Shown here in pieces: positions 5,867 to 27,897 of a stretch of 64,000 nucleotides of DNA. Positions within the stretch are counted from its first letter, which is position 1, and every line of letters begins with the position of its first letter. The notes under the pieces were generated by a model. That model had not been told where the DNA came from. It saw only the letters and a program-made list of their open reading frames with translations, and did no database searches. The stretch is from an uncultured Bacteroidales bacterium (GTDB lineage: Bacteria; Bacteroidota; Bacteroidia; Bacteroidales; Paludibacteraceae): contig CALAUA010000015.1 in assembly GCA_937891975.1 (NCBI GenBank), positions 145,378 through 209,377 on the forward strand, in the 5' to 3' direction. A program made the position numbers and the translations under genes.

Positions 5867-8800
5867 TTACAAGCGATGTCCCTGCGCGTCGAAAATGCCC
5901 TCCGCGGTACGGATGATGAGCTTACCGTCGATGAGGTATTTCTCAATGCCTTTCGCCTCATCGCCTACATTACCCACTCCTGTGGTCACATCCTTCTGTG
6001 GTTGGATATGGAGCGCAAAGCGATTCTCGTAACTACCAGCAGACAGAGTAATGGTATAATCGTCGAGCAAGAGGTTAGTGCGTGTATTTGTCTCGTAGTC
6101 AATGAGTTCTACCACCATACCCTCTGTGCCGTCAGGCATACGGAAGGTGTACTCACCTTCGGTGGCAATCTTCACGCCAACAGGCACGATAACCTCTTCC
6201 ATTGGTAATGTGTTACCCGCAAATGGGATGCCTTCAGACAATGTATAGATATTAGGTTTGCCGCTATTGAATACTTTGTTGAGGTCTTTGTTTTGGTCGA
6301 AGGTCGTTGTACCATCTTCATCTAAAGCTACAAATGTTTGGTCTTGCTTTTCGCCTTCTGTATTGGCAAGTTCGAGGCGCATGGTTACAGATGAACGTTC
6401 TGCTTGTGCTCTGCGAGGTGCCGCCAATGGTTCAGGCACCGTTTCATTGATAGGGTTCCAAGTAATAGTACCTGCAAACTGCACCATATAGCCGTAGAAG
6501 GATTTGTAGGTAGCAGTCTTACCATCTTCAGGAGTATAGTTATAACTTGTTCGGTTATTATTGTTGTCAAAAGTATAACTATATTGATAACGGAAACTTG
6601 GTGCTTCAGTTAATTCTTTATATTCTGGATCATTATCTTTATCATATTCTTTCACAGTCGCATTATTGTAACTGGTAGTACCAATCATCTTCCAGTTGCT
6701 ATCTTGCAAGTAGCGATTATGGAGAGTAAGAGTACATGGATGATTTGGGTAAGTGACAGTAAGTTGTTGCGTTGACTGCTGCTGCAAATCAAATCCACTA
6801 CCGATAGATGGGAAGTAGAGACGTAGCATAGAGATTATTTCTTTTTGTCCTTCTATAACATCGCCATTTGCATCAGTCTTATCCACTTCTATCTCATTCC
6901 ATGTGGCATTTTTCTTGTCAAATGCGAGCAGATATCCTTCACCTGCCTTCAACGTGTCCTTAGGAGACATCCACTCCCAGAATGTTGCCGTCTCTGCATA
7001 CCAACCCTTTTGAGCGCGAAGGTCACCGCGATAGCGTTGAATACCCCATAATTCCATATAACCATGCACACCAGATATACTACCTACCACGCAGTCAAAT
7101 GGTAAAGTGAACATATATTGCTCTTCATGACGTTCGTCTTCATTTGTACTACCACGGTGCAATTCCATTGCAAAGAATAGACTCTTTAAATTATTAATTT
7201 CACCATTGCCAGATAGTGTAATCTGTGGTACATTTTCATTCTCCTTGCGGATGAAAAGTACATCCGCATTTACTGTTTTATCTGTAGTAATAGTTAAGTC
7301 TGTTGCTATTTCCCAAACAGCTATGATTCGGTTCGTTTTGAAATCATACACTACGCGCACTTTATATACGCCATTATCCGTGCCCGAACCAATAACCGTT
7401 TTCTGAATAGGTGTGCTAGTTTCTTCGCCAGTTACTTCATTGATGCCGTAGCCCAATAAGTGGTTATACACAGTAGTATCAGTACGAGGTGATTTGGCTT
7501 CTACATACAGAGAAGCAGAAGGTGTTCCGTTGGTAATATTTACGTAAACATCTCGCTCATATACCCAGTTGCTGACATCGCGGAATTTATTGCCGTCATT
7601 ATTAGTATTGTTTCCGTATGGTAATTTTTTTGTACATTCCTTATCTGCATATGCATTGTCACAATGCAAATTGAGATAGCTTGCGTCTGCACTACCTTGC
7701 AGAACAGCTCGGCCGAAATAGTTGGTACGTGGGTCATAACCGAAGCGTACATTGATAACTTTACCTGTACCAACCTTGATATCGCCATATTCATTAGTAT
7801 TCTTATCTTGCAACAATTTGCCAGCTAGGTCATCGTTGTAGTCGTTTGCCACGCAGGCACTTACATCTTTACCATCGTAACCTCCAGAGTTCATAGCTTG
7901 TACCCAATAGTGGTTGTAGAACTCACCTTCGCGTGAAACAAATTCAGTGAATGTGCGGCTAGCTTTTTCGGAGTCTGTCCAATCATGAATAGAGTTCCAA
8001 CCCTTGTTGCTGATATCGCCATCTGTACCCCATGTACGGATGTAGAAGTTACCTGAATAAACTGCTACATTGGTAAGACCTGTACCATCTGCATTAAGTT
8101 TTGCTGTATAGACGTTTGACGCTGTGAATGTTTCAGGTGCGATTGTTGCATGCAAATTGCCGTTCTTATACAACATGACTACACCTGAACGGTAATTAAC
8201 TTCATCTTTACCAGGAGCAAAGAATGAGAGAATATCAGAGGTGCTGGTGACTATATTAGAAGAATACTCCTTACCATTTTGCATGACTATCTTCACTTGG
8301 TATTCATCTGCATCCTCCCAGCAATAATCGCCAGAACGTGAAATGGAAGGTTGATTCCCATATCCTTCATTTTTCATCGTATAACATCCATCTGTACTAA
8401 CATCTTTTACATCTGGTGATTTGCGCCAATTGTCATTCATGTTTTCATAAAACACCAAGAAACTTGTTTTTCCGTTAGTGTGTAATGGCACTTCCGCTTG
8501 TAGATATTTATACTTTCCAGACTCCTCATACACAAATTCCAATGCAATATCTGCATTATAACCAGAACTATACCAATAGTGTATCTTAATTTCGGAATTA
8601 TTGTTCCAACCAATATTGTCATATGTTCCTCCATCTGCTATTGGCACCTTCACTTGAATAGTGATGTGCGTATCTTTTTCTACGGTTACTTGGAATTTTT
8701 TGGTAACAGTTTCCTCGTGCAATGTGTAGTTCACAGTGATGGTGGTTGTGCCATCTTCGTGACCATATACGATGATGTTGGTTCCTGACATGATAGCTGT

Positions 8801-11800
8801 TGCAACAGTCGTGTTGGCGCTGCTAACTGTAGCTGTCACATCGCTCAGTTTATTACCCAAACTTACTTGTATAGAAGGTGAAACTATTTTTTGCTCGCCC
8901 TGTGTAAGAGTGATATTGTCAATATTACTTACTGCCAAATCACCAGGGCAATCGGCATTGGTAAGTGTGTAGTTGTTATATCCATTTTGATTAACCTTGT
9001 TATTACTTAATTGATAACATGTATTTTCACTTGGTATCTCGTAGTTGAAGGTTTGATTTGCATCGCTTCCGCCGTTTACGATAAAGTGGTCGTAGTATGG
9101 GTATTTCACCACGAATACGCGCCATGTACCAAAGTGTTGAGCAAAACTCTCACCAGGCCATTCGGTCTTCACATCTGCTGCACCAGCGTCGTCTCCGCGC
9201 CACATATATACATTGCTCAATATGCTATTGGGATCGTTGACCTTGATAGTGACTAATTTATAAACAGCCACTTCGGTACGTACCTCAAATACACGTCCTG
9301 CCACTTCTTCGGTTGTAGCGGTGAAGGTCAAGATACCTACTTGTTGAGCAGGTGTGTATTCGGTTGCATATTTTTCATTATAGGTTGTTGTTAATGTGGT
9401 TTCGTTAACCTTGATAGTTACGTTTCCAGTGTAACCATTGTAGGTGGCACTATATGATACTTCTACGTTGGTTCCTTGTTGTACTTTCTCTAAACTGATT
9501 TCGTCTCCAGGGGTGGTCAAAAGTACCATTTCAGGTGTCAAGACTTGTTGGAAGTAAACCGTGGTGGTAGCTTCGGTTCCCTTCTTTCCGTAAGAGTCTT
9601 TGTAGTAGGTGGTGATAGTGATAGGAGTAACCTCGGTGGTGATGTTCGTTAGGTCAAACGTATTGGCTGTTTGCTCTGTCTCACCTACTTTGTAGTAGGC
9701 AGTCAATCCTGCTACTTCTGTCAGTGGGGTTACTGTCAATCTTACCGTTTCATCGTTGTATAATTGGTAAGGGGTAGCTTGCGCTCCATCGCCTGCAATC
9801 CATTCATTGATTGTCTGCTCCTTATATACGCGCACTGCGGTGTATGTGACTGCAGGTGTTGTTGGTAGAGCGGGGTAGGTGATCTTCACTTGTGGTGCGG
9901 TCAAGGATATACCATCTGCTCCAGACCAACGGATATGAATGGTGTATGAACCTGCTTGCGTTGATTTGAATTTGATTGCGGAATTGGCATCTTTCCAAAT
10001 CTTTACCCAGTCAGCACATGATTGAAGGGCGCTGACAGAATTGCCGTATTCCGCAGAATTATTTGCATAGTCTTTTACTTTGAAACTGTATTCGGTATTT
10101 GCAGCCAAAGTAACGATGCATGCCCAACTGCCATCGCCTTGCTTGGTGAAATATGGATTGTTGCCAGGGAGGGTGTTGGTAGCATGTTTGCTAATCAATT
10201 GGTATCTCTCTGAGAAGGTCGCAACGAGTAATCCATCGCCTATTGTACCATTACCGCTAAGGGTGGTAGTATTGCCTGTGGTAGCAGAACTTACTGCAGG
10301 AGCAGTTGCAGTCCAACTTTGTGTATAATAACCCTCAGCAGGAGTTGCGGTAACAGTAACGGTGGTTTCCACACCCACACTTGCCTCTTGTGGTGATACT
10401 GTTCCCTTGTTATCATCGGATGATTTGATGTCAATAGAGGCTTTGTTTTCAACAAATACTGCTTTCACAGTTACATCCGCATTCACAGTGCAGGTGTAAG
10501 ATGGATCAGTCGATAATTGATTACCACTCCCGTCTGTCCACTTAGAGAAAGTGTAACCAGTATTTGCTTCTTGTGTAAATACAACACTTTTTCCCTTTAA
10601 CACATAGTCGCCAGAAGTAATTGCAACTCCATCCACTTTGGCAGTAACAGTCTTACCCCCCGTCCCCTTACTAAAGGTTACTTTGTATGCCTCTGGATAG
10701 GTTACGGAGAGGTTTTTATTAGAACTGTTGAATGTGAAAGTATAATTGCCTGCGACATCGGTTTTAAGAGTTAAATTATTGCTGCTTGTGCTTAATGTCT
10801 TACTTGACGATGCACGCGTAAGATCTCCACTGCTTGCACCATACCACTCTGAATCATATACAATCTTGAAAGTATATGTGGTGTTCGCGTTTAGGCTACG
10901 AGTGACAGTATAAGTACCCGAGCCAGTCATGTCAAATTCACCTGTATTAGTTGCGTCTGCTGGATTTGCAGCTGATATACGCAATTGATTATATACAGGC
11001 CATGTGACTTCTAAAGTTGGCTTTGAAGAATCATCATAGTTGAGGTGGAAAGTATATTTACCTGCTAGATAAGGCTTAAAGCGTATGTTGTTACTAGCGC
11101 TGGTGGAAAGCGTGAGGTTATTGTTCTCTTTGGTTAGCCAATAATGATCACCACCAGATCCCCAACCTAACCATTTTTTATTGTCATCGGAGCCTGCTGC
11201 ATTATAAATTTTAAATTCCCATTGATTGTCATTAGGAGTTACTTTACTTTGAGGGACATCAATTTCCCAATAAACATCATTAGAATTCGCGTTCCCAGAA
11301 TGCTTTTTCATCATTGTATTTTGATTAGCATTCCATCCTTCAGAAAAAGGTCCAGCATTATCACCTTGTACGTAGTATGTACTTGTTAAATCTTCTGCAT
11401 AATTTGCAACGACTTCAGCAGCTTTGCTATCGCCATTAGAGCGAACAGTGATGTTTGTTGCATCAGCTGCTCCGCCATCGGTGCGGGTACAATTGGTAAG
11501 CGTCCAACCTGTAAAAGTGTAGCCATTGCCTGCTGCAGTAGCTGTGACTGTGGCTGTGGTTTCATAACCTATTGAATTTACTGATGCTGTTGGAACTGCA
11601 TAGCCAGGGTCGCCTGCATCGTATTTATTGGAGGTTGTCAGCGTGGACATGTTTTCCGTAGCAGAAGCAGTCACTATAACCGAACCATTTTTTACGGTTA
11701 CGGTTGTGTTTGCTGTTGTTGCGTTGCCGAATGTAGCGTTTGCTGCTGGATTAGCAGTCCAAGTGCTGAAAGTGTAACCCGTTTTAGGTGTGGCTGTGAT

Positions 11801-12904
11801 ATTGTAGGTGCTTCCTAATGTTACAGGGTCAGTAGAACCACCAACGGTGTTTATTCCATCGCCTGCCAGTACGGTCAAGGAGTGGGTTGCTGTTGAGCGG
11901 AAGTTGGCTTTCAATGTACCTGCGGCAGTTGCAGTGATGGTTGTAGAAGCAGCTGTCGTATTTGCTACAACAACACCTCCTGTAGCTGTCCAATTAACAA
12001 ATTCGTAATTTGCATCTGGAGTGGCAGTGACTGCCGTCGTTGTGACTTGTCCAATAGTCTTATTTCCTAAAGGAGATACTGTTCCGCCAGAGCCTGCTGA
12101 GATAGTGACAGCATATGTATTCTCTGTCCAAATAGGAGTAATTGTTACATTGCTGGTAAGTGTATAGGTTTGAGAAGCGATGTCTGCTGCAGCAATAGTA
12201 GTAGTTGTACTACCATTATTGATTTGTACACCGCCAAAGGTATATCCTGTAGAGGCAGATGCGCTGAATTTAAGAACAGTGAGGTGAATTTTGCTTGCAC
12301 CAGTAGCAATAGTGTTGTTGTCGTAGTCCTTTACGGTTAGTGTGCCACCTGTAGGGCTATTGATTGTGACAGTATAGTCTGATTTAGTAGAAGTAGACCA
12401 ATTGTATACAGTACACTTCGTATCAAAGTGCGTAACTGAAGTAGTCCCATTTGCCTTATAAATTGTAGTTGCGTTCCAAACAGATGTGCGAATATTTGTC
12501 ACATTATTGTTGCCATGGTACACAAATTTATATACATTTTCACCGTTAGAGTCCCACCATTTCTCTTTGCTGACTACCCAACCTGATGCTCCATCCCATG
12601 AATTTCCATTATTCCATCCTTTTGCCAATTTCCAAAGGTACTGTGTACCAGAAACACGAGTCATGGCATAGCAAGATGTATGAGAATCATGACCGATATA
12701 AACGTAACAGTTCGTCCATTTTGATGTGGAGTTATCAAAGTATAAATCCACATTTGATTGGTTGATAGCCGCCCACGCATTACTAACTCCCATTAGTAGG
12801 AGAATGAGGATAGCAGTTGTTCGTATACCTTTGGTATATCCTTGTAATAGGTTAAGAAATTGTTTCGCCTTCTTCTCGGCGCAATTTGTAAATGTTTTAT
12901 TCAT
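5867..12904 (-). CDS. Giant cell-surface protein with divergent InlB B-repeat modules and a T9SS-like C-terminal tail
   Basis: Uninterrupted 2345-aa ORF. Leader MNKTFTNCAEKKAKQFLNLLQGYTKGIRTTAILILLLMGVSNAWA. Many ~75-aa modules of type Y.VT....GGTVSP.......TATP..GY.F..WT. Tail ends KYLIDGKLIIRTAEGIFDAQGHRL. Confidence 0.85.
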   Translation of the reverse strand: MNKTFTNCAEKKAKQFLNLLQGYTKGIRTTAILILLLMGVSNAWAAINQSNVDLYFDNSTSKWTNCYVYIGHDSHTSCYAMTRVSGTQYLWKLAKGWNNGNSWDGASGWVVSKEKWWDSNGENVYKFVYHGNNNVTNIRTSVWNATTIYKANGTTSVTHFDTKCTVYNWSTSTKSDYTVTINSPTGGTLTVKDYDNNTIATGASKIHLTVLKFSASASTGYTFGGVQINNGSTTTTIAAADIASQTYTLTSNVTITPIWTENTYAVTISAGSGGTVSPLGNKTIGQVTTTAVTATPDANYEFVNWTATGGVVVANTTAASTTITATAAGTLKANFRSTATHSLTVLAGDGINTVGGSTDPVTLGSTYNITATPKTGYTFSTWTANPAANATFGNATTANTTVTVKNGSVIVTASATENMSTLTTSNKYDAGDPGYAVPTASVNSIGYETTATVTATAAGNGYTFTGWTLTNCTRTDGGAADATNITVRSNGDSKAAEVVANYAEDLTSTYYVQGDNAGPFSEGWNANQNTMMKKHSGNANSNDVYWEIDVPQSKVTPNDNQWEFKIYNAAGSDDNKKWLGWGSGGDHYWLTKENNNLTLSTSASNNIRFKPYLAGKYTFHLNYDDSSKPTLEVTWPVYNQLRISAANPADATNTGEFDMTGSGTYTVTRSLNANTTYTFKIVYDSEWYGASSGDLTRASSSKTLSTSSNNLTLKTDVAGNYTFTFNSSNKNLSVTYPEAYKVTFSKGTGGKTVTAKVDGVAITSGDYVLKGKSVVFTQEANTGYTFSKWTDGSGNQLSTDPSYTCTVNADVTVKAVFVENKASIDIKSSDDNKGTVSPQEASVGVETTVTVTATPAEGYYTQSWTATAPAVSSATTGNTTTLSGNGTIGDGLLVATFSERYQLISKHATNTLPGNNPYFTKQGDGSWACIVTLAANTEYSFKVKDYANNSAEYGNSVSALQSCADWVKIWKDANSAIKFKSTQAGSYTIHIRWSGADGISLTAPQVKITYPALPTTPAVTYTAVRVYKEQTINEWIAGDGAQATPYQLYNDETVRLTVTPLTEVAGLTAYYKVGETEQTANTFDLTNITTEVTPITITTYYKDSYGKKGTEATTTVYFQQVLTPEMVLLTTPGDEISLEKVQQGTNVEVSYSATYNGYTGNVTIKVNETTLTTTYNEKYATEYTPAQQVGILTFTATTEEVAGRVFEVRTEVAVYKLVTIKVNDPNSILSNVYMWRGDDAGAADVKTEWPGESFAQHFGTWRVFVVKYPYYDHFIVNGGSDANQTFNYEIPSENTCYQLSNNKVNQNGYNNYTLTNADCPGDLAVSNIDNITLTQGEQKIVSPSIQVSLGNKLSDVTATVSSANTTVATAIMSGTNIIVYGHEDGTTTITVNYTLHEETVTKKFQVTVEKDTHITIQVKVPIADGGTYDNIGWNNNSEIKIHYWYSSGYNADIALEFVYEESGKYKYLQAEVPLHTNGKTSFLVFYENMNDNWRKSPDVKDVSTDGCYTMKNEGYGNQPSISRSGDYCWEDADEYQVKIVMQNGKEYSSNIVTSTSDILSFFAPGKDEVNYRSGVVMLYKNGNLHATIAPETFTASNVYTAKLNADGTGLTNVAVYSGNFYIRTWGTDGDISNKGWNSIHDWTDSEKASRTFTEFVSREGEFYNHYWVQAMNSGGYDGKDVSACVANDYNDDLAGKLLQDKNTNEYGDIKVGTGKVINVRFGYDPRTNYFGRAVLQGSADASYLNLHCDNAYADKECTKKLPYGNNTNNDGNKFRDVSNWVYERDVYVNITNGTPSASLYVEAKSPRTDTTVYNHLLGYGINEVTGEETSTPIQKTVIGSGTDNGVYKVRVVYDFKTNRIIAVWEIATDLTITTDKTVNADVLFIRKENENVPQITLSGNGEINNLKSLFFAMELHRGSTNEDERHEEQYMFTLPFDCVVGSISGVHGYMELWGIQRYRGDLRAQKGWYAETATFWEWMSPKDTLKAGEGYLLAFDKKNATWNEIEVDKTDANGDVIEGQKEIISMLRLYFPSIGSGFDLQQQSTQQLTVTYPNHPCTLTLHNRYLQDSNWKMIGTTSYNNATVKEYDKDNDPEYKELTEAPSFRYQYSYTFDNNNNRTSYNYTPEDGKTATYKSFYGYMVQFAGTITWNPINETVPEPLAAPRRAQAERSSVTMRLELANTEGEKQDQTFVALDEDGTTTFDQNKDLNKVFNSGKPNIYTLSEGIPFAGNTLPMEEVIVPVGVKIATEGEYTFRMPDGTEGMVVELIDYETNTRTNLLLDDYTITLSAGSYENRFALHIQPQKDVTTGVGNVGDEAKGIEKYLIDGKLIIRTAEGIFDAQGHRL

Positions 12905-12975
12905 GATTTTTGTTATTTTAGTCTGTAGAATTTTAGTTTCACGCTTATTATGATGTTTTAGTATGCCTTTTATAC

Positions 12976-13959
12976 TTAAATGTAATTTTGAGCAATGTTC
13001 TCTATTATCTGTGCTAAGGCAGATGAATATTCAAAGTCCATATCAAGAAGCAGTGGTATTGGTACATTATGCTTGTAATAATATGGATGAGGGTTAGGAG
13101 CCAATATTATTTCGTAGTTATACCAAAAATACAATTCAAATAATTTATTGTAAGTTTCACCACGTGTTCTACAAGCGGTAAGTATAATATCGCATCCTAT
13201 CTGCTCAAAATCATCTATGGATTCAGGCATACGAGAATCTGGATCTCCTTGGCTCTCAACACCTATTAAACAATTATTTATATTAACAACACCTTGAACA
13301 TCCCCATCATCTTTAATAAGGTTATTAGGATACTTATTTGATAATATATTCCACACTCCTTTGATTGAGGTAGATTTGCCCATATATCCATGACCACAAT
13401 CAGCAATAATATAACGAGGTCTACTATAATCAACAGGGAGCTCACGCATCGTATTCTCAATTTGAAAGCCCCTATTATTTACCTTTAATTCATACCATTT
13501 ATGATCCAAGTTATCCAAAAGTTGTAGGTAACATGTAAATCCCAATGCTTCAGAAGAAAACGTATGTAATTGTTCTTTACTCCACTGGATTCCTACGATA
13601 TTGGCCACACGCCGTAAAGCATCAACGAGTTGTTCTGGTTCCCATTCTGCATAGTTTTGCAGTATGTTTGCTACTTCCTTAGCAAATGCAATAACTTTTT
13701 GAGGACGAGACAATGCTTCTTGTATTTCCTCTTTGAGCACCCCTGGAATATTTTCTAATTCTTGTTGATTAGCTACAATATGTGGTTGTTTATCCCCGTA
13801 CAAAGGTATTTCTATTTCTACCTTTTTTCGTTTCCCGTTTACAAGTATCGGCTGTTTTGTTTTCTTATGAATATGAACCGAAGTAATATCCATCGGACGA
13901 CCATCTCCCCTCTGATGGCTATCAATGCGCAGTATCTGATTATTAATTAATGGTTTCAT
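12976..13959 (-). CDS. Hypothetical protein with a C-terminal P-loop (Walker A) domain, AT-rich
   Basis: 327-aa ORF 72 nt upstream of giant gene 1 on the same strand. GHGYMGKST fits GxxxxGK[ST] and CLIGVESQGD is Walker-B-like. A sampled 60-nt line counted 19 G+C, clearly below neighbouring genes. Confidence 0.5.
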   Translation of the reverse strand: MKPLINNQILRIDSHQRGDGRPMDITSVHIHKKTKQPILVNGKRKKVEIEIPLYGDKQPHIVANQQELENIPGVLKEEIQEALSRPQKVIAFAKEVANILQNYAEWEPEQLVDALRRVANIVGIQWSKEQLHTFSSEALGFTCYLQLLDNLDHKWYELKVNNRGFQIENTMRELPVDYSRPRYIIADCGHGYMGKSTSIKGVWNILSNKYPNNLIKDDGDVQGVVNINNCLIGVESQGDPDSRMPESIDDFEQIGCDIILTACRTRGETYNKLFELYFWYNYEIILAPNPHPYYYKHNVPIPLLLDMDFEYSSALAQIIENIAQNYI

Positions 13960-14146: not shown

Positions 14147-14189
14147 CATTTGTGGCATTTTTGGCATTTGTGGCATTTTTGGCATTTTG
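14147..14189. repeat. TTTGGCATT / TGTGGCATT word array
   Basis: catttgtggcatttttggcatttgtggcatttttggcattttg. Confidence 0.85.
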
Positions 14190-14260
14190 AAATTCCTGAA
14201 AATCCCTATATTCCCGTTTCCCTAATTATCCTTTTCTACTTTTGCAAAGCTCTTGCTTTA

Positions 14261-14303
14261 CTATGTCATTACTATGTCATTACTATGTGATTACTATGTT
14301 ATT
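14261..14303. repeat. 11-nt word array CTATGTCATTA, four copies
   Basis: ctatgtcattactatgtcattactatgtgattactatgttatt. Confidence 0.9.
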
Positions 14304-14328
14304 CCGCTACCCTTGCGCTACCTTTACG

Positions 14329-14486
14329 CTATCTTCAGGGTATCTTCAGGGTATCTTCGGGACATCCTATATATATCCCTTATACATCCCTTGGTTATCC
14401 TATGCTGCTCCTTCGGTGAGGTTCCGATGAGATTCCAATCAGGTTCCGATGAGGTTCCGATGGAAGTAAGGGGCATGTAAGGGGCA
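14329..14486. repeat. Composite repeat, left copy (inverted partner at 18699-18834)
   Basis: Three GTATCTTCRGG units, then a ~45-nt unique core (gacatcctatatatatccc..ggttatcctat), a variable 11-nt word module (GAGGTTCCGAT), then ggaagtaaggggcatgtaaggggca. Confidence 0.85.
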
Positions 14487-14490
14487 AATA

Positions 14491-14913
14491 TTATGCCGTC
14501 TGCTTCTTGCGTAACCTAATAACCACCGCCGCCACTGCTGCAAACAATAGCAATATCCATGGTTCGCCTACAGGGCTGCCACCTTGCGTACCAGGGTCAC
14601 CACCTCCGGCAAGATTCTTCCTCCCACTTATTCCTTTTGGACCGCTATTGCTATTGCCACTCTCGCTGGGCGGAGTGTCATTAAACGGCTCATACACAGT
14701 GCCTTGGTATGCCTTGTACTCGGTGGAGAGTGCCTCTGCATTACCCATCACACGATAGTCGCTCTTCATCGCACCACCATACGCTCCCCACTGCTGTGAG
14801 GAAGCGGTCGGTTGTGTATAACCGCCAACTTGATAAGAGTTAGATGCATTGTAGGATTGAGCGTAAACCTCTACGCCAAAAGCAAATAAAATCAGTAAAC
14901 ATGCGCATTTCAT
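14491..14913 (-). CDS. Small secreted Gly/Ser/Pro-rich protein with a PEP-CTERM-like C-terminal anchor (expressed copy)
   Basis: ORF trimmed to MKCACLLILFAFGVEVYAQ at 14913. The C-terminus PVGEPWILLLFAAVAAVVIRLRKKQTA is motif + TM helix + basic tail. A -7 box lies upstream at 15007-15014. Confidence 0.65.
   Translation of the reverse strand: MKCACLLILFAFGVEVYAQSYNASNSYQVGGYTQPTASSQQWGAYGGAMKSDYRVMGNAEALSTEYKAYQGTVYEPFNDTPPSESGNSNSGPKGISGRKNLAGGGDPGTQGGSPVGEPWILLLFAAVAAVVIRLRKKQTA
14657..14817. repeat. Inverted repeat IR-L of the putative inversion switch
   Basis: Reverse complement of 15342-15502 with about 8 mismatches by eye. Lies inside the CDS. Confidence 0.85.
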
Positions 14914-18903: not shown

Positions 18904-21900
18904 ATGAATACAACATTTACAAATTACGCCGAGAAGAAGGCGAAACAAATTCTTAATCTATTACAAGGCTATACCAAAGGTATACGAATAACTGCCATCC
19001 TCATTCTCCTACTCATGGGAGTTAGTAATGCGTGGGCGTGGACAGCGCACTTTTCTCTTATGGGCGATCCTGTTGGTAATAATTGGCAGAATGATCGAGA
19101 TTTCATGATTAACACAAGTACAGGAACTACGGACGAGTGGTATATCTATGCATATGTAGCAAATAATCAATATTTTGCTTTAAACAATGGAAGTAATCAG
19201 TACGGACCTTCAAGCAACGGTCAGGCTATAAAAAACGGCACAGGTGGAGGTCAGGGCAATTATAATACAAATTCATGGAAATTCACAGGAACTAGTGGAA
19301 TCATAAAGATTTGCTGTGCGGAAAGTAATGACCGTGAATGGTATCCATGGGTATGGGTAGAAGAATCCGCACCAACTATCAAATTTAAACATCCATGGAA
19401 TGGTGGTAGTTGGAGTGAACAAACAGCAACAAAACAAAATGACGGGACATATACCTACGATGGTAAATATGGAAATAACAAAGGCTTTAATGCAGGTCCT
19501 TCTGGTAAGTACAAATATAACGCAAGTCAAACAACCGTAGAAGGTTCACCCGCTACAGGAGATATGTGTAGATTTATTTGGAATCCTGTTGGTTATGTAC
19601 AAGGAGGAGCAGAAACAAAAGCATCTGGAACATTTAAAATTGTTAAACTTTGTTCGCTCACCTATGATGGCAATGGAAAAACAGGAGGAACAGTACCTTC
19701 TGCTACTAACAACCAACTATATAACACATCTATTACATTATCATCCGAAACTTTAACTAAGGCTGGTTATACACATACTGGTTGGAATACCAAAGCAGAT
19801 GGCACAGGAACCCATTATGACAAAGGAGCATCCTACACATTAACAGCAGCGAGTACCACTCTCTATGCAGAATGGACATCTACCGCTCCTACCATAACCA
19901 TTTCTACTGAAAAAACATACTTAAGAACAGCTTATGATAAATTAATTTTAAAGATTTATTACTCAAATATCCCAGAAGGATATACTTATCGTGTCCATGC
20001 AACTCCAGAGGCTTACTTCAATGGTAATGAGAATGGGGATAATGTTGATCGGGTGAGTATTTCAGGTAATGGAAACACTACTTTTGTATCTAATGGATAT
20101 CTTGCCCAGAATCAATATACTGTAGAAGTGATATTATGGAATAATGGTGGTGCAACAGATATAATATCAAATTCCCTTTCCATCACGGTAGAACCTCAAT
20201 TATCTGTTCAAACACGAGCTCGTTTTAATAATCAAATAAACACAACTGCCGCAGAGCACCCACAACCAGAATGGGTACATCCTTCGCAGAATGTAGGAGA
20301 AACAATTACAGCTAGCGAACCGAAACCAGGTTATACATTTGCGGGTTGGACTGCTAATGATGATAACCTTATTAAGTTTGATAATCCTAATTCACTTACA
20401 ACTATTGTTAAATCGAAAGTAAATGGTAATAACAATGCAGTGGCTTACGCCAACTATACCCGTGTAGAAACCTATGCCTTTATACAAGGTCGTTTTCGTG
20501 TGAATAGTGCATCACGAAATCAGATGACATATACTTATGATGATGGTGGTCAATGGAACGAAGGGAGCACTAATATCCAAATGGAATATGATGATACAAA
20601 CTCACGTTTCTATCTTCACACATATATGAAGCCTAAAGAGCTAACAGAGCCCCATGGTACTAATTGTGGTGAATGTAAGCCTTATTTTTATATTAAAACA
20701 AGTACCTCTAGTAGTTCTCTTACGAATGCTACACCATATTGGTCTTCATCCAAACAATATATAATAGAAGCGGGAAAAGAGAACAAAAAGGAATTAACGA
20801 ATTCTTCTAGCAATGTGGTTAACAATAACTTACGCTTTAACACTCAAGATGAATCAGGTTATGTAATATTATATTTCGATCAACAATACATCTGGTATGA
20901 GTTGGAGCATAGATTAGAATACGATGCCAACGGTGGTACAGGTAGTGCACCAAGCAGAACGTATCATCTTAAAGGTTCCACAACTACTACCGCTTCGGAC
21001 AACATATTCACTCGTGACGGCTATGATTTCCAGGGTTGGAACACCAAAGCAGATGGTACGGGCAATCAGTATGAGGCAGAAGCAAACATTACGATAGAGG
21101 CAAACACAACTCTCTACGCACAATGGGCAAAACCAACATTCACCGTTACACTAGACCCACAGGGTGGTACAGACGGAACTACTTCTGTTGAAGCAACTTA
21201 TGGAGAAGAAATGCCCGAAGCAACGATGCCTCAGCGTGAGGGATTTACTTTTGGCGGATATTTCACAGAGACTAATGGCGGTGGCACTCAGTATTACAAT
21301 GCTGATGGCTCTAGTACGAAGAATTGGGATATCAAAGAACCTAAAACCCTCTACGCCAAATGGATACAACAATATGTGATTGTGGGTAATGGTAAAGGTA
21401 GTTGGCTGAATGGTGCTAACTGGATAGAAAGTGTGATAGCAGATGATAGCTTTGACGTTACCAAGCAGTCAAGCAATATTATTGATGGTAGTGTTACCTA
21501 CTCTGCTTGTCCTGCTGGACTGAAGAACTTCCGCATTGTGCCATGGGGTAAATGGGATACAAATCATGGTAAAGAGCAGCTAACTAGTTGCAATGTACCT
21601 TCCTACACCAATGAAGACAATAATATTGCGTTCGTAACTGTGGCGGAAGCTGCCATCACAATCGGATTTGATGGCACGAATATTACAGTACAAGTAGATT
21701 ATGATGCTGAAGATTTAGCCAATGTAAAAGCCGAAGTCGTCGCAGACACAAAACGAATGTTCTATTTTGGAGACGAGTTAACAGATCGATCAAGGCAGTA
21801 TTTATACGTTAATGAACTTGAAAATAGCACAGATAACCACGTTGTTACAGAAACGAAAGGATTACTTTTAGAAGGTGTAGGTGCACAAAAGTGGCTAGCT

Positions 21901-24900
21901 GTGGCGATACTGCCTCCTAAGACATATAACATTTCTAATGATGCTAACTGGGGAGGTGTTTCTACAGGTGAAGTTGTTCAAGCGGGTGCAATATATGCAT
22001 GGCACGGCAATCAAGTGATGGTAAAAACAGCAGGCACCCCGCCGACATTAGGAGATGTAAGCATTAGAGTAGGAAGAGCCAACTCTGGATTAACTGCATC
22101 TGCTGGCGGCTCCTCTATCGGACAGGCACAAACCATCACCGATTACTACTATAAAAAGGAGGGTGAGAGTACTTGGACTAAGTTTGACCCGAATAACGTA
22201 AGTGCTTTGCCAGTAGGTATATACAAGGTACACGCGCTCGCACACGATGGCAATATCTACGTGCGCACCGCAGAACCTGCTACTTTGACGATATATGACG
22301 ATTACACCATCACCTATAAAGATCAAGGCGGTAGTGCTTTCACTGGTGCACACGAAGCTGGTTGTCCTGCTATACACCTCTACGGACAGACAACTGAACT
22401 GAAATCAGCAACCAAAACTGGTTATGAGTTTGGCGGTTGGTTTACAAGTCCAGATTGTACAGGCGAACCTATCACTACACTTGGAGCAACAGATTATACT
22501 GCAGACATTACCCTCTACGCTAAGTGGACTGCCAAGACTTATCCCGTTACCCTTGACCAAACTGGTGCAAAAACACCAGGAACTCCCTCTGTAACTGCTA
22601 CTTATTATGCTGCAATGCCTCACATAGAAACTCTACCTACTCCAAAAGATGGCTATGCATTTGCAGGATATTACGACCAAAAAGATGGCGCAGGTACACA
22701 ATATTATGACGCAGAGGGCGCGAGCGCGCACGTGTGGGATAAGGCAAATGATGGTATTCTCTATGCAAAATGGGAGGCAATCACTTACACCATCACTTAT
22801 CATCTCAACGGTGGAAGTGGCGCCGCAAACAGCACTTACACCATCGAATCTGAGGATATTATCTTACCAACCCCTACTAAAGCAGGTCACACCTTTGGCG
22901 GTTGGTATGACAACGAAGGTTGTACAGGAGAAGCTATTACCAAGATAGCTCAAGGTTCTACTGGCCACAAAGAGTATTGGGCAAAGTGGACAATCAATAG
23001 TTATACCATCCTCTTTGGTACAGAAGATGGCGGAACTGTAAGTGCTACTGTAGGTGGGAATGCAATCAGTAGTGGTACTTCACTTACGTATGGTACACAA
23101 GTTCAATTGACTGCCACTCCCGAACCTGGGTATTCTTTCAGCGAATGGACAAATGGTAGTGGCAATGAGGTTTCTACATCCAATCCTTATACAGTGACCA
23201 TAGACGGCAATATCACCCGAAATGCTGTCTTTATTGAAGCGACTACCCTGTATCTCAAACCAAACGCTGATTGGCTGAAAGACGGTGCACGCTTCGCTGC
23301 GTATGCATTTGATGGAGGAGAGGCAACTTGGTATGATATGGAAGAAGTGGGATGTTCTGGTATTTATTCATGTGCCATTCCGGGAAGTTATAATAAGGTT
23401 ATTTTTGGGCGCATGAATCCAAACAAAACGGAGAATAATTTTGATAATGAAGTAAGATGGGAACAGACCATTGATTTAAGTATTCCAACAGATGGTACTA
23501 ATTTATTCACTGTCACAAACAAGCCAGTAGGAAGCAACTGGAATGGTGAATGGGAATCCGAGCCATTTAATCCTCTAGCATATACTATTACGCTGGAAGG
23601 TGAAGGTGGTACGATAGAAATCACACATGAAGGTGGTACAGCTACGGAGAATACTACTGTAGCACCCAATACCATCATCACCGTTGCTCTTTACCCTCAT
23701 AGCGGTTACACGGTAGGTACACCTAAAATAAAGATTGGTTCCAATGCTGCAGCTAACTTGGTAGTAGGGCAAAAATATACTATTTGCGGACCTACTACGA
23801 TTACCGCTAATTGGGTTGAAACGAAATATGCTGTAGCAGTTAATTCAAACAATAATACTTACGGAACGGTAAGTCCAAGCTCTGTACAAGTGGGACAATA
23901 CACTCCTTCTCAGAAGATTACTGCTACGCCGAAAGCTGGTTATCGTTTTGTGAATTGGACAGCCACCGAAGGTGTGTCAATCAATTCCCCAATCTTTGAA
24001 TCCACCACCATCACTGCTTCCCAAGCAGGTACACTAACCGCCAACTTCGAAAAAGACCCTACCGTTTACCTCAAGCCAAGTGCTGTTTGGAAAAAAGATG
24101 GTGCACGTTTTGCAGTGTATTGGTGGAAGGATACAAAGAACGGTTGGATAGATATGACCACTGTCGGCTGTAACGACGAATATTATACAGCCGAATTGCC
24201 TGCAGGAGTTACGAATTTTAAGTTTGTTAGGTTAAAACCTAGTGGTGGGCATGCTTTTAGCAATGCATGGGATCAGACTATAGATCTTACCTTGCCAACT
24301 AACGCCAACAACCTATTTGCAATGAAAAAATTGCATCTCAATATAGGAGAATGGAATAAAGATAATCAGAAATGTTATGCGGCACACTTCTACAATTCAT
24401 CAAATGAAAGTAAGACCATTAATTTGACCGAAGGTAATGATCCGATGGTTTATTACTGCGATATACCAACGGATAAACATTATACGAATGTTGTGTTCTA
24501 TCGTGTGAATCCTAGTAATACTGGAGAAATATGGCATCAAACAAATGACCTGACTATAGACGGCGATTTCTACACGATTACCTCATTCGGTGGAGATGGT
24601 AACAAAGCAGAAGGTACTTGGACGTTACAGAGTATAGGTGAATGGTTGGCGTTGCCGTTGCCTACTATCACCTACACTCAACCAGAGAATGGTACGATTA
24701 TCGTTAAGACCATACGAGGTGTGGAAATACCTAGCGGAACAAAAGTTCCATGGGATACGCAAGTCCTCGTGTCGGTACAACCGAATACAGGATATTCTGT
24801 TGAATATGCTAATATCGATATTGGTGGTACACAGCATGATGTTCAATCGGGTACACCTTACACCATCTGCGGAAATACAACTATCTCTGCTACCATGGAA

Positions 24901-27897
24901 GAACATACAGATTACTATCTAGTAGGTTTGGATGGTGATTGGAGCCCTAAAGCAACAAACAAGTTTGTGGATGGGAAACTGAATATCAACCTCGAAGGAA
25001 ATGGTACAAAAGAATTTAAAATTATCAAGCAACAAGGTAATGCGCAAAAATGGCTGAGCAAACAGTTTACGTTCAAACCTACGGCTCTCACGACTTCGGG
25101 TATCACTGAGGATGGCGAAAATATGAAGATTGAGACGGTGCATAATGGCATTTACCAGTTTACGTGGAATAATGGTACGCTGACTGTGGCATATCCAGAC
25201 GTATGTTACTTGCATGGAGACTTTAATAGTTGGACAGATCACCCAAATCATGCGTTGCACAACAGAGATGCAAAAGTATTCTTGGAAGAGGGTGTTACGT
25301 ATGAGTTTAAAGTGGCAGAAAAGGGAGTATATCGTACACAGAGCGGCAACTTATGGGAAACTCCGATTACTTATACTGAGGGTGGCAAGACTATTATAAT
25401 GAATGATGCTACTTCTTATGACTCGGAACCACATCATAACTCCAAAATCACCGCTAATATGTCAGGATTCTACATCTTCCATTACGATGCAGAGACAAAG
25501 AAATTAACTATTTCCTTCCCTCTGGATGTAGACGACTATCGTTTAGCGTACAAAGATGATATTCATCCTTTCCACCCTGCAGGAATTTACATCAAACAAT
25601 GCACAAGTGGAGAACAATTGGATACAATAAGTTTCTTCGTACATCATGAGAAAAAACCGCTTATCATTTTACAACAATGCTTGTCAGTCACTGGAAACTC
25701 TGCAACATGGGAAACCGTTTGCACGTATGAAACCACCAAAAATTTAGAAACAAATATTGAAGGTCATGGCATAGATTCGACGGGTGTATTCAACTTTGTA
25801 TTGCAACAAACCAACGACCCTGAACATGCTGCTCAACTCTTGACAGAAGATGTACATCCATACACGGGCGACTACTACATCCGTACAAATGCAGCTCCAG
25901 GTAAGTGGGTGGAATTCCAGCAAGATGGCAACAAAATGACATACAGCAGTTATGCAGATAACAACGAGCCATTTAGCCACTACTTCTGTAAGTGGGTATC
26001 CACAGAAGCAGAAGCTGCAAATAATACAAATAATGTGAAATATACCATTGCCAATGACTATAGCTATTGCATATCCGACACTTTGGCTGCTGACCCAGAA
26101 GATGCAAGTCCTCGAATTGTGGCAAATGCAAGTGGTGATTTGCCTACCAATAGCGCAAACGTGCGCTTTGGTTGGGATTGGGGTACCAACCAACTTACAC
26201 GTGCATACATGGCAGGTGCTACTAATGCCACAGCGGCTACATTCTTACGAATAGAACAAGCAGAGGACTTGGAGAATAACGAAGGAGCGGCTGTAACAGA
26301 GATTAATTTTACAGACTTGCAAAACTGGATTTATCAAGTGGATGTGAGAGCCAAAAACACAACAACGATAAAACTGACTGCGCTGTATGCTGAGCATCTA
26401 CAATATTTCAAGGGTGATAAAGATAATAGCATGAGGTTGTTGTCGAGTGATGCAGCGGAGAATAAATGGTTTAATATGCGATTAACTTATGATTTCAAGA
26501 CGAACCACTTGATTATAGCTTGGTTACCTGATGATAAACCAATAGGGGGTGAGTTAGATGCAGATATGATGGTGATTCGTGAGCACAATAGGACTGGTGT
26601 ATCGGTTACTCAATTAAATTTGAATAATGCCTTGGAAAAGGTGAAAACAGTATATGCCGTGATGAGCTTTACACAAGATTGGATTAAGAAAAACTCGCGT
26701 GAGCAAAGCATCTACTGGGTATCCTTCCCATTTGATGTGAAACTCTCTGAGGCATTCGGATTCGGAGAGTATGCCGATGCGTGGATCATGCAATACTACG
26801 ATGGCGAAGAACGTGCTAAGAAGGGTTTATATGCAAACTCAGGTACCTATTGGAAGTATATCTTTGATCCAGAGACGATATTAAAGAAAGGTGTGGGTTA
26901 CGTATTGGTACTTGATCTAAATAAGGTTAAGTTTAATCATGGTGTAAATAGCGTTAGTCTCTATTTCCCATCCAATGGTGAGGTGGGTACGATTACGCAA
27001 GCGGAGGAGCCAAATGTCACAGTAGAGGTACCTGCTCACCAATGTAATTTAGGTGTAAGTACAACAGGTATGGATCATAATATTACGGACTCGCACTGGA
27101 ACCTCATTGGTGTACCTGCGTTCAAAGAAATTGACCAATTCAATGTTACGCAATACCATTATGACCAACAAGATGCTAGTTTCTACTATAAGTTCAATAC
27201 GAATTTGAGTAAGTACACTGTTATAAGTTCTACAAGTGTGACTTTCGAAGCAATGTATTCGTATATGGTACAGTTTGCTGGAACAATCAACTGGACAACC
27301 AAAACAGTTGAGGGTGTTACTCCTGCCCAACTCGCAGCACGTCGCAATAGCGAGAGTGAGTTGCCAGAGAAGGTAGTTCTGAACGTAGAGTTGCTTCAAG
27401 GTGAAGAGATGGCAGACCAAACTTTCGTACAACTGCAGCAAGAGGGCGCAACCGCTGACTTTGATATGAACCTCGACCTCACGAAGATTATCAATAGTGG
27501 TGCGAACATCTACACCCTCGCAGGCGAGCAACGTATCCAGTCTGCAGGTAATGCGCTGCCAATGGGCGAAGCCATTGTGCCAGTGGGTGTACAAATCGCT
27601 ACCGAAGGCGAATACACCTTCCGTATGCCTGACGGCACAGAGGGTGTGGTGGTAGAACTCATTGACTACGAGACCAATACGCGTACCAATCTTTTGCTTA
27701 GCGATTATATCGTCACCCTGCCAAAGGGCACAGAAGAAAATCGTTTTGCACTGCATATCCAACCTGAGAAGGATGTGACCACAGGAGTGGGTAATGTAGG
27801 CGATGAGGCGAAAGGCATTGAGAAATACCTCATCGACGGCAAACTCATCATCCGCACCGCAGAGGGTATCTTCGATGCGCAGGGACATAGGTTGTAA
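18904..27897 (+). CDS. Giant cell-surface protein with Listeria-Bacteroides (InlB B) repeats and a T9SS-like C-terminal tail
   Basis: Uninterrupted 2997-aa ORF. Leader is near-identical to giant gene 1. Canonical repeats such as YDGNGKTGGTVP...KAGYTHTGWNTKADGTGTHYDKGASYTL..STTLYAEW. The last ~100 aa are near-identical to giant gene 1. Confidence 0.9.
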   Translation: MNTTFTNYAEKKAKQILNLLQGYTKGIRITAILILLLMGVSNAWAWTAHFSLMGDPVGNNWQNDRDFMINTSTGTTDEWYIYAYVANNQYFALNNGSNQYGPSSNGQAIKNGTGGGQGNYNTNSWKFTGTSGIIKICCAESNDREWYPWVWVEESAPTIKFKHPWNGGSWSEQTATKQNDGTYTYDGKYGNNKGFNAGPSGKYKYNASQTTVEGSPATGDMCRFIWNPVGYVQGGAETKASGTFKIVKLCSLTYDGNGKTGGTVPSATNNQLYNTSITLSSETLTKAGYTHTGWNTKADGTGTHYDKGASYTLTAASTTLYAEWTSTAPTITISTEKTYLRTAYDKLILKIYYSNIPEGYTYRVHATPEAYFNGNENGDNVDRVSISGNGNTTFVSNGYLAQNQYTVEVILWNNGGATDIISNSLSITVEPQLSVQTRARFNNQINTTAAEHPQPEWVHPSQNVGETITASEPKPGYTFAGWTANDDNLIKFDNPNSLTTIVKSKVNGNNNAVAYANYTRVETYAFIQGRFRVNSASRNQMTYTYDDGGQWNEGSTNIQMEYDDTNSRFYLHTYMKPKELTEPHGTNCGECKPYFYIKTSTSSSSLTNATPYWSSSKQYIIEAGKENKKELTNSSSNVVNNNLRFNTQDESGYVILYFDQQYIWYELEHRLEYDANGGTGSAPSRTYHLKGSTTTTASDNIFTRDGYDFQGWNTKADGTGNQYEAEANITIEANTTLYAQWAKPTFTVTLDPQGGTDGTTSVEATYGEEMPEATMPQREGFTFGGYFTETNGGGTQYYNADGSSTKNWDIKEPKTLYAKWIQQYVIVGNGKGSWLNGANWIESVIADDSFDVTKQSSNIIDGSVTYSACPAGLKNFRIVPWGKWDTNHGKEQLTSCNVPSYTNEDNNIAFVTVAEAAITIGFDGTNITVQVDYDAEDLANVKAEVVADTKRMFYFGDELTDRSRQYLYVNELENSTDNHVVTETKGLLLEGVGAQKWLAVAILPPKTYNISNDANWGGVSTGEVVQAGAIYAWHGNQVMVKTAGTPPTLGDVSIRVGRANSGLTASAGGSSIGQAQTITDYYYKKEGESTWTKFDPNNVSALPVGIYKVHALAHDGNIYVRTAEPATLTIYDDYTITYKDQGGSAFTGAHEAGCPAIHLYGQTTELKSATKTGYEFGGWFTSPDCTGEPITTLGATDYTADITLYAKWTAKTYPVTLDQTGAKTPGTPSVTATYYAAMPHIETLPTPKDGYAFAGYYDQKDGAGTQYYDAEGASAHVWDKANDGILYAKWEAITYTITYHLNGGSGAANSTYTIESEDIILPTPTKAGHTFGGWYDNEGCTGEAITKIAQGSTGHKEYWAKWTINSYTILFGTEDGGTVSATVGGNAISSGTSLTYGTQVQLTATPEPGYSFSEWTNGSGNEVSTSNPYTVTIDGNITRNAVFIEATTLYLKPNADWLKDGARFAAYAFDGGEATWYDMEEVGCSGIYSCAIPGSYNKVIFGRMNPNKTENNFDNEVRWEQTIDLSIPTDGTNLFTVTNKPVGSNWNGEWESEPFNPLAYTITLEGEGGTIEITHEGGTATENTTVAPNTIITVALYPHSGYTVGTPKIKIGSNAAANLVVGQKYTICGPTTITANWVETKYAVAVNSNNNTYGTVSPSSVQVGQYTPSQKITATPKAGYRFVNWTATEGVSINSPIFESTTITASQAGTLTANFEKDPTVYLKPSAVWKKDGARFAVYWWKDTKNGWIDMTTVGCNDEYYTAELPAGVTNFKFVRLKPSGGHAFSNAWDQTIDLTLPTNANNLFAMKKLHLNIGEWNKDNQKCYAAHFYNSSNESKTINLTEGNDPMVYYCDIPTDKHYTNVVFYRVNPSNTGEIWHQTNDLTIDGDFYTITSFGGDGNKAEGTWTLQSIGEWLALPLPTITYTQPENGTIIVKTIRGVEIPSGTKVPWDTQVLVSVQPNTGYSVEYANIDIGGTQHDVQSGTPYTICGNTTISATMEEHTDYYLVGLDGDWSPKATNKFVDGKLNINLEGNGTKEFKIIKQQGNAQKWLSKQFTFKPTALTTSGITEDGENMKIETVHNGIYQFTWNNGTLTVAYPDVCYLHGDFNSWTDHPNHALHNRDAKVFLEEGVTYEFKVAEKGVYRTQSGNLWETPITYTEGGKTIIMNDATSYDSEPHHNSKITANMSGFYIFHYDAETKKLTISFPLDVDDYRLAYKDDIHPFHPAGIYIKQCTSGEQLDTISFFVHHEKKPLIILQQCLSVTGNSATWETVCTYETTKNLETNIEGHGIDSTGVFNFVLQQTNDPEHAAQLLTEDVHPYTGDYYIRTNAAPGKWVEFQQDGNKMTYSSYADNNEPFSHYFCKWVSTEAEAANNTNNVKYTIANDYSYCISDTLAADPEDASPRIVANASGDLPTNSANVRFGWDWGTNQLTRAYMAGATNATAATFLRIEQAEDLENNEGAAVTEINFTDLQNWIYQVDVRAKNTTTIKLTALYAEHLQYFKGDKDNSMRLLSSDAAENKWFNMRLTYDFKTNHLIIAWLPDDKPIGGELDADMMVIREHNRTGVSVTQLNLNNALEKVKTVYAVMSFTQDWIKKNSREQSIYWVSFPFDVKLSEAFGFGEYADAWIMQYYDGEERAKKGLYANSGTYWKYIFDPETILKKGVGYVLVLDLNKVKFNHGVNSVSLYFPSNGEVGTITQAEEPNVTVEVPAHQCNLGVSTTGMDHNITDSHWNLIGVPAFKEIDQFNVTQYHYDQQDASFYYKFNTNLSKYTVISSTSVTFEAMYSYMVQFAGTINWTTKTVEGVTPAQLAARRNSESELPEKVVLNVELLQGEEMADQTFVQLQQEGATADFDMNLDLTKIINSGANIYTLAGEQRIQSAGNALPMGEAIVPVGVQIATEGEYTFRMPDGTEGVVVELIDYETNTRTNLLLSDYIVTLPKGTEENRFALHIQPEKDVTTGVGNVGDEAKGIEKYLIDGKLIIRTAEGIFDAQGHRL

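Follow-up and report, generated by a model that had tools for sequence, protein, structure and literature searches.

Inversion of DNA is a familiar source of surface phase variation in Bacteroides, in which invertible promoters and shufflons depend on short repeats and dedicated invertases and promoters alone are flipped. In the sap locus of Campylobacter fetus, which Dworkin and Blaser are said to have described in 1996-97, a promoter segment reportedly lies between opposed surface-protein genes with conserved 5' ends, inversion of this segment by homologous recombination selects the expressed gene, and the promoter receives new cassettes through nested inversions. To our knowledge, pathogens provide many documented cases of phase and antigenic variation in giant surface proteins, and uncultured gut commensals other than Bacteroides far fewer. 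The locus analyzed here lies in a stretch of 64,000 nucleotides (nt), hereafter the window, from an uncultured Bacteroidales bacterium of the Paludibacteraceae (GenBank assembly GCA_937891975.1, contig CALAUA010000015.1, positions 145,378 to 209,377, forward strand). Two giant genes, G1 (5867-12904, minus strand) and G2 (18904-27897, plus strand), are transcribed outward, away from each other, and a central segment with two opposed copies of a small gene, S, lies between them.

Three further systems are close enough for comparison. Gene-altering programmed inversions join a constant 5' part to alternative 3' bodies, as in pilV of the R64 shufflon and in type I hsdS; their signature is an asymmetry in which everything between the transcription start and the first repeat is missing from one copy, and exceptions to the adjacency of a recombinase exist (PMC9881135). 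The babA, babB and babC genes of Helicobacter pylori have near-identical N- and C-terminal regions and a divergent middle, and gene conversion makes chimeras and moves the genes between positions (PMC4552749). In Porphyromonas gingivalis, domain rearrangement and allelic exchange in the Kgp adhesin domains, FimA and others have produced mosaic surface proteins that do not follow the strain phylogeny (PMC5266723).

The window locus combines features of all four known systems (programmed inversions, sap, bab and P. gingivalis) in an uncharacterized family, and joins three routes of variation: body replacement via conserved ends, mirrored positions, and an invertible promoter with a coding start. 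With moderate confidence, it is read here as a locus of recombination-driven surface-protein variation, with two mirror units, exchange of bodies, and an axis switch that probably chooses the transcribed arm. Each mirror unit would comprise a small S gene, then accessory genes, then the gene for a giant secreted protein. The conserved leader and C-terminal module of the giants would serve both as export signals and as homology arms; bodies or parts of bodies are replaced between strains and shift between the left and right positions. Recombination between repeats inside the S coding sequences would invert the axis segment and fuse the sole S promoter, start codon and signal-peptide part to either S1 or S2; the flip would then steer transcription into the left or the right arm, with alternative expression of the two giants as the outcome. 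If the switch is real, strain-level metagenomics of these bacteria will misjudge surface-protein content unless orientation and body identity are resolved.

The mirrored units and their inverted repeats

The coordinates, strands and sizes of the two giant genes were exactly as given in a preliminary description of the window. G1 encodes 2345 amino acids (aa), with an extended signal peptide, InlB B-repeat (Flg_new_2) modules, a conserved C-terminal module of ~750 aa and a short conserved tail. G2 encodes 2997 aa, with the same type of leader and C-terminal module and with Flg_new and Flg_new_2 repeats.

The ends of the two genes form inverted repeats, estimated earlier at ~135 nt with ~90% identity and at ~330 nt. 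The 5' repeat (12770-12924, minus, versus 18884-19038, plus) measures 155 nt at 95% identity and spans the first 45 codons and the 20 nt before each ATG; 41 of the 45 residues are identical. The 3' repeat (5858-6234, minus, versus 27530-27906, plus) measures 377 nt at 82%, covers the last ~120 codons of each gene and extends 9 nt beyond the stop codons. Three further sets of inverted repeats were found in the central segment: 14642-14817 versus 15342-15517 (176 nt, 91%; 161 nt at 95% by BLAST), 14329-14439 versus 18724-18834 (111 nt, 88%) and 14443-14487 versus 18698-18742. The last two belong to a repeat-rich non-coding pair in inverted orientation (14314-14487 versus 18698-18838). The 3' tail repeat scored 379 bits and the repeat of the S genes 255 bits (this value does not refer to the 5' leader repeat), compared with at most 35.6 bits for any inverted match when the region was shuffled 20 times. 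Because of the three additional sets, the whole locus is recognized as an inverted duplication of a unit made up of the small gene S, a repeat-rich spacer and a giant gene, with its axis near 15130.

Related contigs were found by exact-protein look-ups and two collection scans, and all comparison sequences are metagenome assemblies. The sources of L042, L043, L044, L046 and L059 are ERZ28594429, ERZ28594298, ERZ28594172, GCA_045601825.1 and ERZ28633540, in that order. The nearest genomes were metagenome-assembled genomes labelled Paludibacteraceae bacterium; exact look-ups of the window S1, ATPase and Bro-N proteins gave no match, and the window's own strain is absent from the collection. Five full or near-full loci share one layout (the window; JAF, comprising contigs L008 and L015; L042; L043; and L059): rplS, G1(-), accessory genes(-), S(-), axis, S(+), a Bro-N gene(+), accessory genes(+), G2(+) and the gene for a sigma-54-type response regulator. 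In more distant genomes, units of S and a giant gene occur in other orientations around the same response-regulator gene.

The invertible axis segment

S1 (14491-14958, minus) is the complete small gene. Its product of 155 aa has a signal peptide, a conserved YKAYQGxVYEPF core and a C-terminal PVGEP motif followed by a hydrophobic stretch and a basic tail. S2 (15342-15713, plus) is a promoterless copy with an intact open reading frame (ORF) and no signal peptide. The axis repeat, which has GTAYCACACAAYCGACCGCTTC as its core, lies within the S1 coding sequence (14642-14817, minus) and forms the first 176 nt of S2 (15342-15517). The S 5' module (14818-15124, minus) is present as a single copy in the window and carries a terminator hairpin (15108-15124), a promoter (14978-15010), the ATG at 14958 and the signal-peptide codons. 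The promoter reads TTTG-N21-TAAATTTG, and TAACTTTG is also present at 15014. The remainder of the invertible segment (15125-15341) is a junction sequence, J1, which ends in GTTTTTTGTAT beside the 5'-truncated S copy.

One complete and one 5'-truncated S gene were found in each of the window, JAF, L042 and L027, with the break at the same codon (..TQPTASS..), and the same pattern was found in L059. The truncated copy is S2 in the window, S1 in L042 and JAF, and Sa in L027, and truncated copies are preceded by non-coding sequence ending in GTTTTTTGTA. The part that they lack is a module of ~300 nt (terminator hairpin, promoter, start codon and signal peptide) that occurs once per genome. This module faces left in the window, L044, L046 and L059, and right in JAF, L042, L043/L045 and L027. 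Two pairs of contigs differ by a clean inversion between collinear flanks: L046 7721-9299 versus L042 6549-4976 (1579 nt at 97.3%, both segments with DUF3791 and DUF3990 genes), and L059 6249-7378 versus JAF 18556-17429 (1132 nt at 94.6%, both with the same toxin-antitoxin pair). The right-facing L043 and the left-facing L046 have an identical Bro-N protein and a left arm of 97.2% identity. Inversion within the locus, as foreseen in the preliminary description, is therefore real at the axis repeat, which that description did not list; none was found at the two repeats of the giant genes on which it had relied.

As in gene-altering inversions, inverted repeats lie inside two opposed homologous coding sequences, one copy is asymmetric, and both orientations exist among close relatives. 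Unlike in those systems, no recombinase gene was found among the locus proteins or the genes called on related contigs. What is altered is a small protein with a signal peptide and a membrane tail, not a specificity subunit or pilin, and both alternative bodies stand at the head of an arm with a giant secreted protein at its far end. The locus also differs from sap. The observed inversion is bounded by the S genes and not by the conserved 5' ends of the giants, where a repeat is present and no inversion was found. A start codon and a signal peptide travel with the promoter on the invertible piece, the giants bear no relation to S-layer proteins, and type I secretion genes are absent. Compared with the Bacteroides systems, the repeats here consist of coding sequence, 42-176 nt in length, and no invertase was found.

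The distribution of promoter motifs bears on what the inversion would control. The Bacteroidetes promoter pattern TTTG-N18-22-TAnnTTTG has 14 matches in the window (1.9 expected), all but two of them intergenic; inside the locus it occurs only before S1, the Bro-N gene and the ATPase gene. The 298 nt before G2 contain no TAnnTTTG box, the interval from S1 to G1 has none with a -33 element, and no promoter box was found in the S-to-giant spacers (167-333 nt) of four simple units. Terminator prediction gave none on the minus strand between S1 and G1. The flip probably directs transcription, because no promoter is recognizable for either giant itself and each is immediately preceded by a co-oriented S gene. 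In the window, the module probably drives S1, orf327 and G1, as judged from these motifs; orf327 (12976-13959, minus) is the accessory gene between S1 and G1, with a P-loop-like GHGYMGKST motif and no family match. G2 would rely on the flip, or on read-through from the promoter of the ATPase gene past a weak terminator. The two expression contexts proposed in the preliminary description thus give way to what would be one movable promoter module. We infer the co-transcription of the giants with S, and go by inference too as to which recombinase acts.

Several observations weigh against this reading. Between S2 and G2 lie the Bro-N gene (16003-16848, plus; promoter 15911-15942, terminator 16882-16915) and an AAA_14/DUF4143 ATPase gene (17304-18605, plus; promoter 17237-17268, weak terminator 18661-18675), each with its own promoter and terminator. 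The G2 side is uncertain for this reason: a flip alone might not turn on G2, and the ATPase promoter could read G2. The highly identical repeat core is only 42-56 nt long in L059 and JAF. Junction J1 (window, L044 and L046) differs from junction J2 of the other genomes, and therefore extra events accompanied the inversions in the window lineage. No integrase or resolvase family was found among the locus proteins or the genes called on related contigs to ~10 kb beyond the locus, the window's own flanks not having been scanned. The two orientations are known across strains and not within one population, so the states could be old haplotypes spread by recombination. Finally, no inversion bounded by the leader or tail repeats was seen on any related contig, and the Bro-N gene was in the right arm in every locus.

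A rival reading, which we consider unlikely but worth serious weight, is a recombination hot spot that does not act as a switch. The conserved ends would then be arms for allelic replacement between strains, axis inversion would be rare and historical, and both giants would be constitutive, with G2 read from the ATPase or Bro-N promoters. The strong replacement of bodies between strains, the failure to find a local recombinase, the promoters and terminators between S2 and G2, and the restriction of J1 to three left-facing genomes all agree with it. It accounts poorly for the promoterless S copies, whose frames are intact under purifying selection at a synonymous divergence (pS) of ~0.65-0.7, with a nonsynonymous to synonymous ratio (pN/pS) of 0.37-0.50, compared with 0.45-0.58 for pairs of complete copies. 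The two states are, moreover, about equally common and occur in separate strains with an identical Bro-N protein, and the two inversion pairs have different cargo in the axis segment. The repeat arms are homogenized within each genome, in that the residues encoded by the axis repeat are species-specific and common to both S copies of one genome. A link of J1 and J2 to orientation, which would argue against a simple flip, was ruled out: J2 is found in both states. Because L059 carries J2 while left-facing, J2 travels with the segment and J1 is a lineage variant. Under the switch reading, flipping would be frequent and reversible.

Opposite orientations and bodies on opposite sides could also be created by short-read misjoins at inverted repeats. 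All related loci are metagenome contigs, and assemblers evidently struggle at the axis, since several contigs (L044 and L047) break at the repeat or the 5' module. Misjoining is nonetheless unlikely, and as an account of the whole it is given little credence: the two arms of the repeat can be told apart at several bases (153 nt at 94.8% in L042; a 42-nt core in L059), L046 is without any second arm, and independent samples agree (L043 and L045). The architecture of a single module and two bodies was, in addition, recovered in every genome in either orientation.

Exchange of giant bodies between strains and positions

The preliminary description also proposed that inversion or gene conversion would exchange bodies between the paralogues. 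The exchange itself is borne out; the part assigned to inversion at the giants' own repeats is not. In the conspecific L017, the flanking sequence agrees with that of the window as far as 6234 (92%) and again from 12772 (97.2%), and the intervening body belongs to another gene, of 1777 aa. Both breakpoints coincide with inner repeat edges, those of the left arms of the 3' and the 5' repeat. All eight contigs with the window's exact response-regulator protein have a different right-hand giant (8/8). Chimeric genes, named in advance as a sign of such exchange, are present: in the G2 gene of L042, the 3' 6.5 kb match the window G2 at 94-96%, and the 5' 2 kb and the leader differ. Homologous bodies were found on opposite sides in three pairs, L014-left and L044-right (89.6% over 3884 nt), L017-left and L043-right (92.8% over 2569 nt), and L014-left and JAF-right (80.8% over 4.7 kb). 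A patch in the body of G1 (10444-10769, minus; 326 nt, one B-repeat module) matches the right-hand giant of the conspecific L011 over 311-326 nt at 96-97% and G2 of JAF at 90%. Accessory genes also switch arms and are always co-oriented with the giant. The ParE pair is in the left arm in JAF and in the right arm in L011, L012 and L043; the DUF4143 ATPase gene is in the left arm in L043 and L046 and in the right arm in JAF.

As the central layout is unchanged, such moves could have come about in three ways: by gene conversion or double crossover between mirrored arms, by nested inversions in pairs, or by uptake of foreign DNA. Each of these would use the same conserved stretches. That the conserved ends of the giants act as exchange points is supported by these comparisons. 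An inversion of the giant genes among strains was looked for as well, as the preliminary description had advised, and all five full or near-full loci have the one order G1(-), Bro-N(+), G2(+), response regulator. L014 was considered as an inversion of the whole locus and rejected: the rest of its contig (L046) has the usual layout, with Bro-N on the right, and only the body in the left position differs.

Conserved 5' and 3' ends, a divergent middle, chimeras and position swaps are likewise the marks of bab exchange; the likeness is one of mechanism only, the proteins being unrelated. The bab loci, unlike the giants, are unlinked and encode outer-membrane proteins of ~700 aa with frameshifting at CT repeats, whereas the giants are adjacent, mirrored, 3-4 times longer and modular. 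P. gingivalis belongs to the same bacterial order and likewise has mosaic surface proteins, but those proteins carry a recognized C-terminal domain of the type IX secretion system (T9SS), and neither a mirror pair nor an inversion switch is present.

Conservation at the ends was compared with that of neighbouring sequence. Leader identity at third codon positions was 0.85-0.98 between genomes, compared with 0.47-0.60 for the neighbouring response-regulator gene in the same genomes. As the leader is conserved at the nucleotide level across the family, its high identity is a family-wide property, and the 94% identity between the G1 and G2 leaders is not specific evidence of recent exchange between them. 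As a separate observation, synonymous sites of the leader are nearly frozen across species (leaders in L026-L041), for which a constraint at the RNA or DNA level and constant homogenization are candidate causes.

For the tail, third-position identity was 0.63-0.73 over the last 90 codons and 0.25-0.45 upstream. G1 codons -330 to -115 have 48-51% nucleotide identity to all others, and the last 115 codons 80-84%; in the left arm of the 3' repeat, identity rises from ~49% to ~83% near codon -115. Because G1 is an outlier upstream of this codon and yet 80-84% identical downstream, the jump at about -115 codons marks a recombination breakpoint. The two JAF paralogues have mutually nearest tails (88%, versus 74-79% to all others), a case of concerted evolution. 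Tails in the window's clade cluster by lineage and not by position.

A static pair of paralogues, that is, an old inverted duplication whose ends are alike only through purifying selection on the signal peptide and the C-terminal sorting region, is very hard to reconcile with these data. Conservation of leader and tail across the whole family agrees with it, as does the comparison of the final 30 codons of G1 and G2, which are identical in protein (30/30) and have 8 synonymous differences. Synonymous sites are, however, far less diverged at the ends than in the remaining gene or the neighbouring genes; they are not saturated, the state that had been named beforehand as counting against exchange. 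Non-coding upstream stretches are repeated too, and chimeras and position swaps exist.

Two minor observations concern the extent of the locus. In L011 (8580-9801), L012 and L013, whose response regulator is exactly that of the window, an additional complete S-like gene (130 aa) and a Flg_new_2 ORF of 265 aa come after the right-hand giant and may be the remnant of a third unit. In L007 (10355-20354), the left flank is 97% identical up to window position 5704 and no giant lies beside rplS; DUF4835, endonuclease, DUF4143 ATPase and HipA genes are found in its place. The whole locus may thus be absent or relocated in some strains.

The encoded proteins and neighbouring features

The extended signal peptide of G1 and G2 has 45 residues, the last three of which are AWA, and no lipoprotein cysteine is present in either protein. 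Pfam and NCBIfam scans were made of the seven proteins of the central locus, and Listeria-Bacteroides or InlB B-repeats were the only domains recognized in the giants (G2, Flg_new at an expectation value, E, of 3.2e-58 and Flg_new_2 at 3.3e-27; G1, Flg_new_2 at 1.6e-35), which places both in the B-repeat group (PF09479, PF18998 or TIGR02543). A scan of the bodies for carbohydrate-binding or other domains gave B-repeats only, even at E<5. The central modules had been described as completely different; this does not hold, since G1 and G2 are homologous throughout their final ~750 aa (38% identity across 767 columns, increasing to ~95% within the last 110 aa) and several of their B-repeat modules align at 39-44%.

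A search with the C-terminal 175 aa gave 2527 cluster representatives at E<=1e-3, of which 238 reached E<=1e-30. Among the best 150 of the 2527, nearly all are 1300-3300 aa long with the module at the C terminus, nearly all share the tail K[YF][LI]IDGxLxIxxxxGxx[YF]DAQGxx[LV], and about half have a leader of the G1/G2 type; two further leader classes are present. A second class of extended leader, MKNxNLIKRLWTDSHEKQSPQRFxRYAxMLxMLLTLGVGQMWA, was noted on P0125, P0129, P0138, P0143, P0155 and P0161, which are giants with the G1/G2-type C-terminal module; a long N-terminal extension would seem to be a trait of the giant family. No public protein names were found for members of this family, which is large and uncharacterized. 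As the leader and C-terminal module are family-wide, the giants likely have a common export route, in line with the shared export signal suggested in the preliminary description. The giants would be surface-exposed.

A T9SS sorting domain in G1 and G2 was considered and rejected, the last 172 aa having no match to TIGR04183 or PF18962 even at E<10. Three distant homologues with longer tails (P0010, P0011 and P0016) score 17-20 bits against TIGR04183, short of its cut-off of 23, and by inspection the C termini of G1 and G2 appear ~35-45 residues shorter than the ends of these three. An AlphaFold2 model of the C-terminal 750 aa had a predicted local distance difference test score (pLDDT) of 73.8, and a search for a fold match in the PDB returned none at E<=1e-3. 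The result is a very large unannotated family of proteins of 1500-3300 aa, with a C-terminal module of ~175 aa, a tail missed by secretion-signal models and a small partner gene.

A stronger version of the switch reading is put forward tentatively and is itself rather doubtful. A single invertible cassette of terminator, promoter, start codon and signal peptide, in a locus free of recombinase genes, would toggle mutually exclusive mirror operons, each with a membrane-tailed S protein and a different giant, and nested recombination at the leaders and tails would shuffle bodies between expressed and silent positions. This would amount to sap-like variation, antigenic or adhesive, in commensal gut Bacteroidales, in a family of more than 2500 giant clusters with an undescribed C-terminal export signal.

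The S gene accompanies a giant gene in most loci examined. The S proteins all end in SPVGEP[WFL], ~15 hydrophobic residues and a basic cluster (14491-14580 and 15620-15713 in the window; L006, L027, L029, L034, L036 and L040), which resembles a PEP-CTERM signal; the tail in the window reads PVGEP-WILLLFAAVAAVVI-RLRKK. A PEP-CTERM or exosortase-type match for this tail was sought in NCBIfam and Pfam, with none at E<=0.01.

Mosaics of 11-nt tandem repeats lie between S and the giant gene or accessory slot. The left mosaic (14258-14486) has six different repeats with 2-4 copies each, between S1 and the accessory slot, and the right mosaic (18698-18838, plus) is homologous to 14314-14487. By a second delimitation, the mosaics are at 14147-14486 (six kinds of 11-nt unit) and 18699-18833 (four kinds), with a 9-nt array in addition. 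Copy numbers vary among related loci; units of the CATCGGAACCT type, for example, occur 2 to 5 times. The period of 11 nt is about one helical turn, and these repeats might be contingency repeats or protein-binding arrays.

The accessory slot between S and the giant is variable in content. The P-loop orf327, AAA_14/DUF4143 ATPases, ParE and YoeB toxin pairs, DUF6530, DUF1016/YhcG, DUF3800 and DUF8327 were found there (window; L008, L011, L012, L042, L043 and L059), and several of these families are often tied to mobile or defence functions. For the Bro-N gene, 3642 homologues were counted at E<=1e-100, the best 120 of which are 93-98% identical and mostly on short contigs. In unrelated loci (L049-L058), near-identical copies also neighbour other large genes that lack annotation (1117-1413 aa), and the gene behaves like a multi-copy element linked to large-protein loci. 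The Bro-N homologue P0183 was tried as a route to related loci and led to unrelated ones instead.

The sigma-54-type response regulator (28296-29462, 388 aa) adjoins a unit of giant gene and S and seems too short to include a C-terminal DNA-binding domain; in most related genomes its gene is found together with one for an AAA_15 ATPase, whatever the orientation of the unit (L026, L029, L034 and L038). Control of the locus through sigma-54 by this regulator was considered, from -24/-12-like motifs at 18687-18702 and at ~14500 on the minus strand, and was rejected. Matches to the motif with 2 mismatches are near chance (54 found, 42 expected), and it is absent upstream of the other 19 leaders. 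A search of Rfam gave only the tRNA at 4973-5043. A small hairpin, GTCGC-AAA-GCGAC (GTCGCTCCGCGAC in the window, 15846-15866), followed by AAAAGYGATCTTTGAAA, recurs upstream of several genes (L012, L016, L026, L034 and L035) and may be a dispersed regulatory or terminator element.

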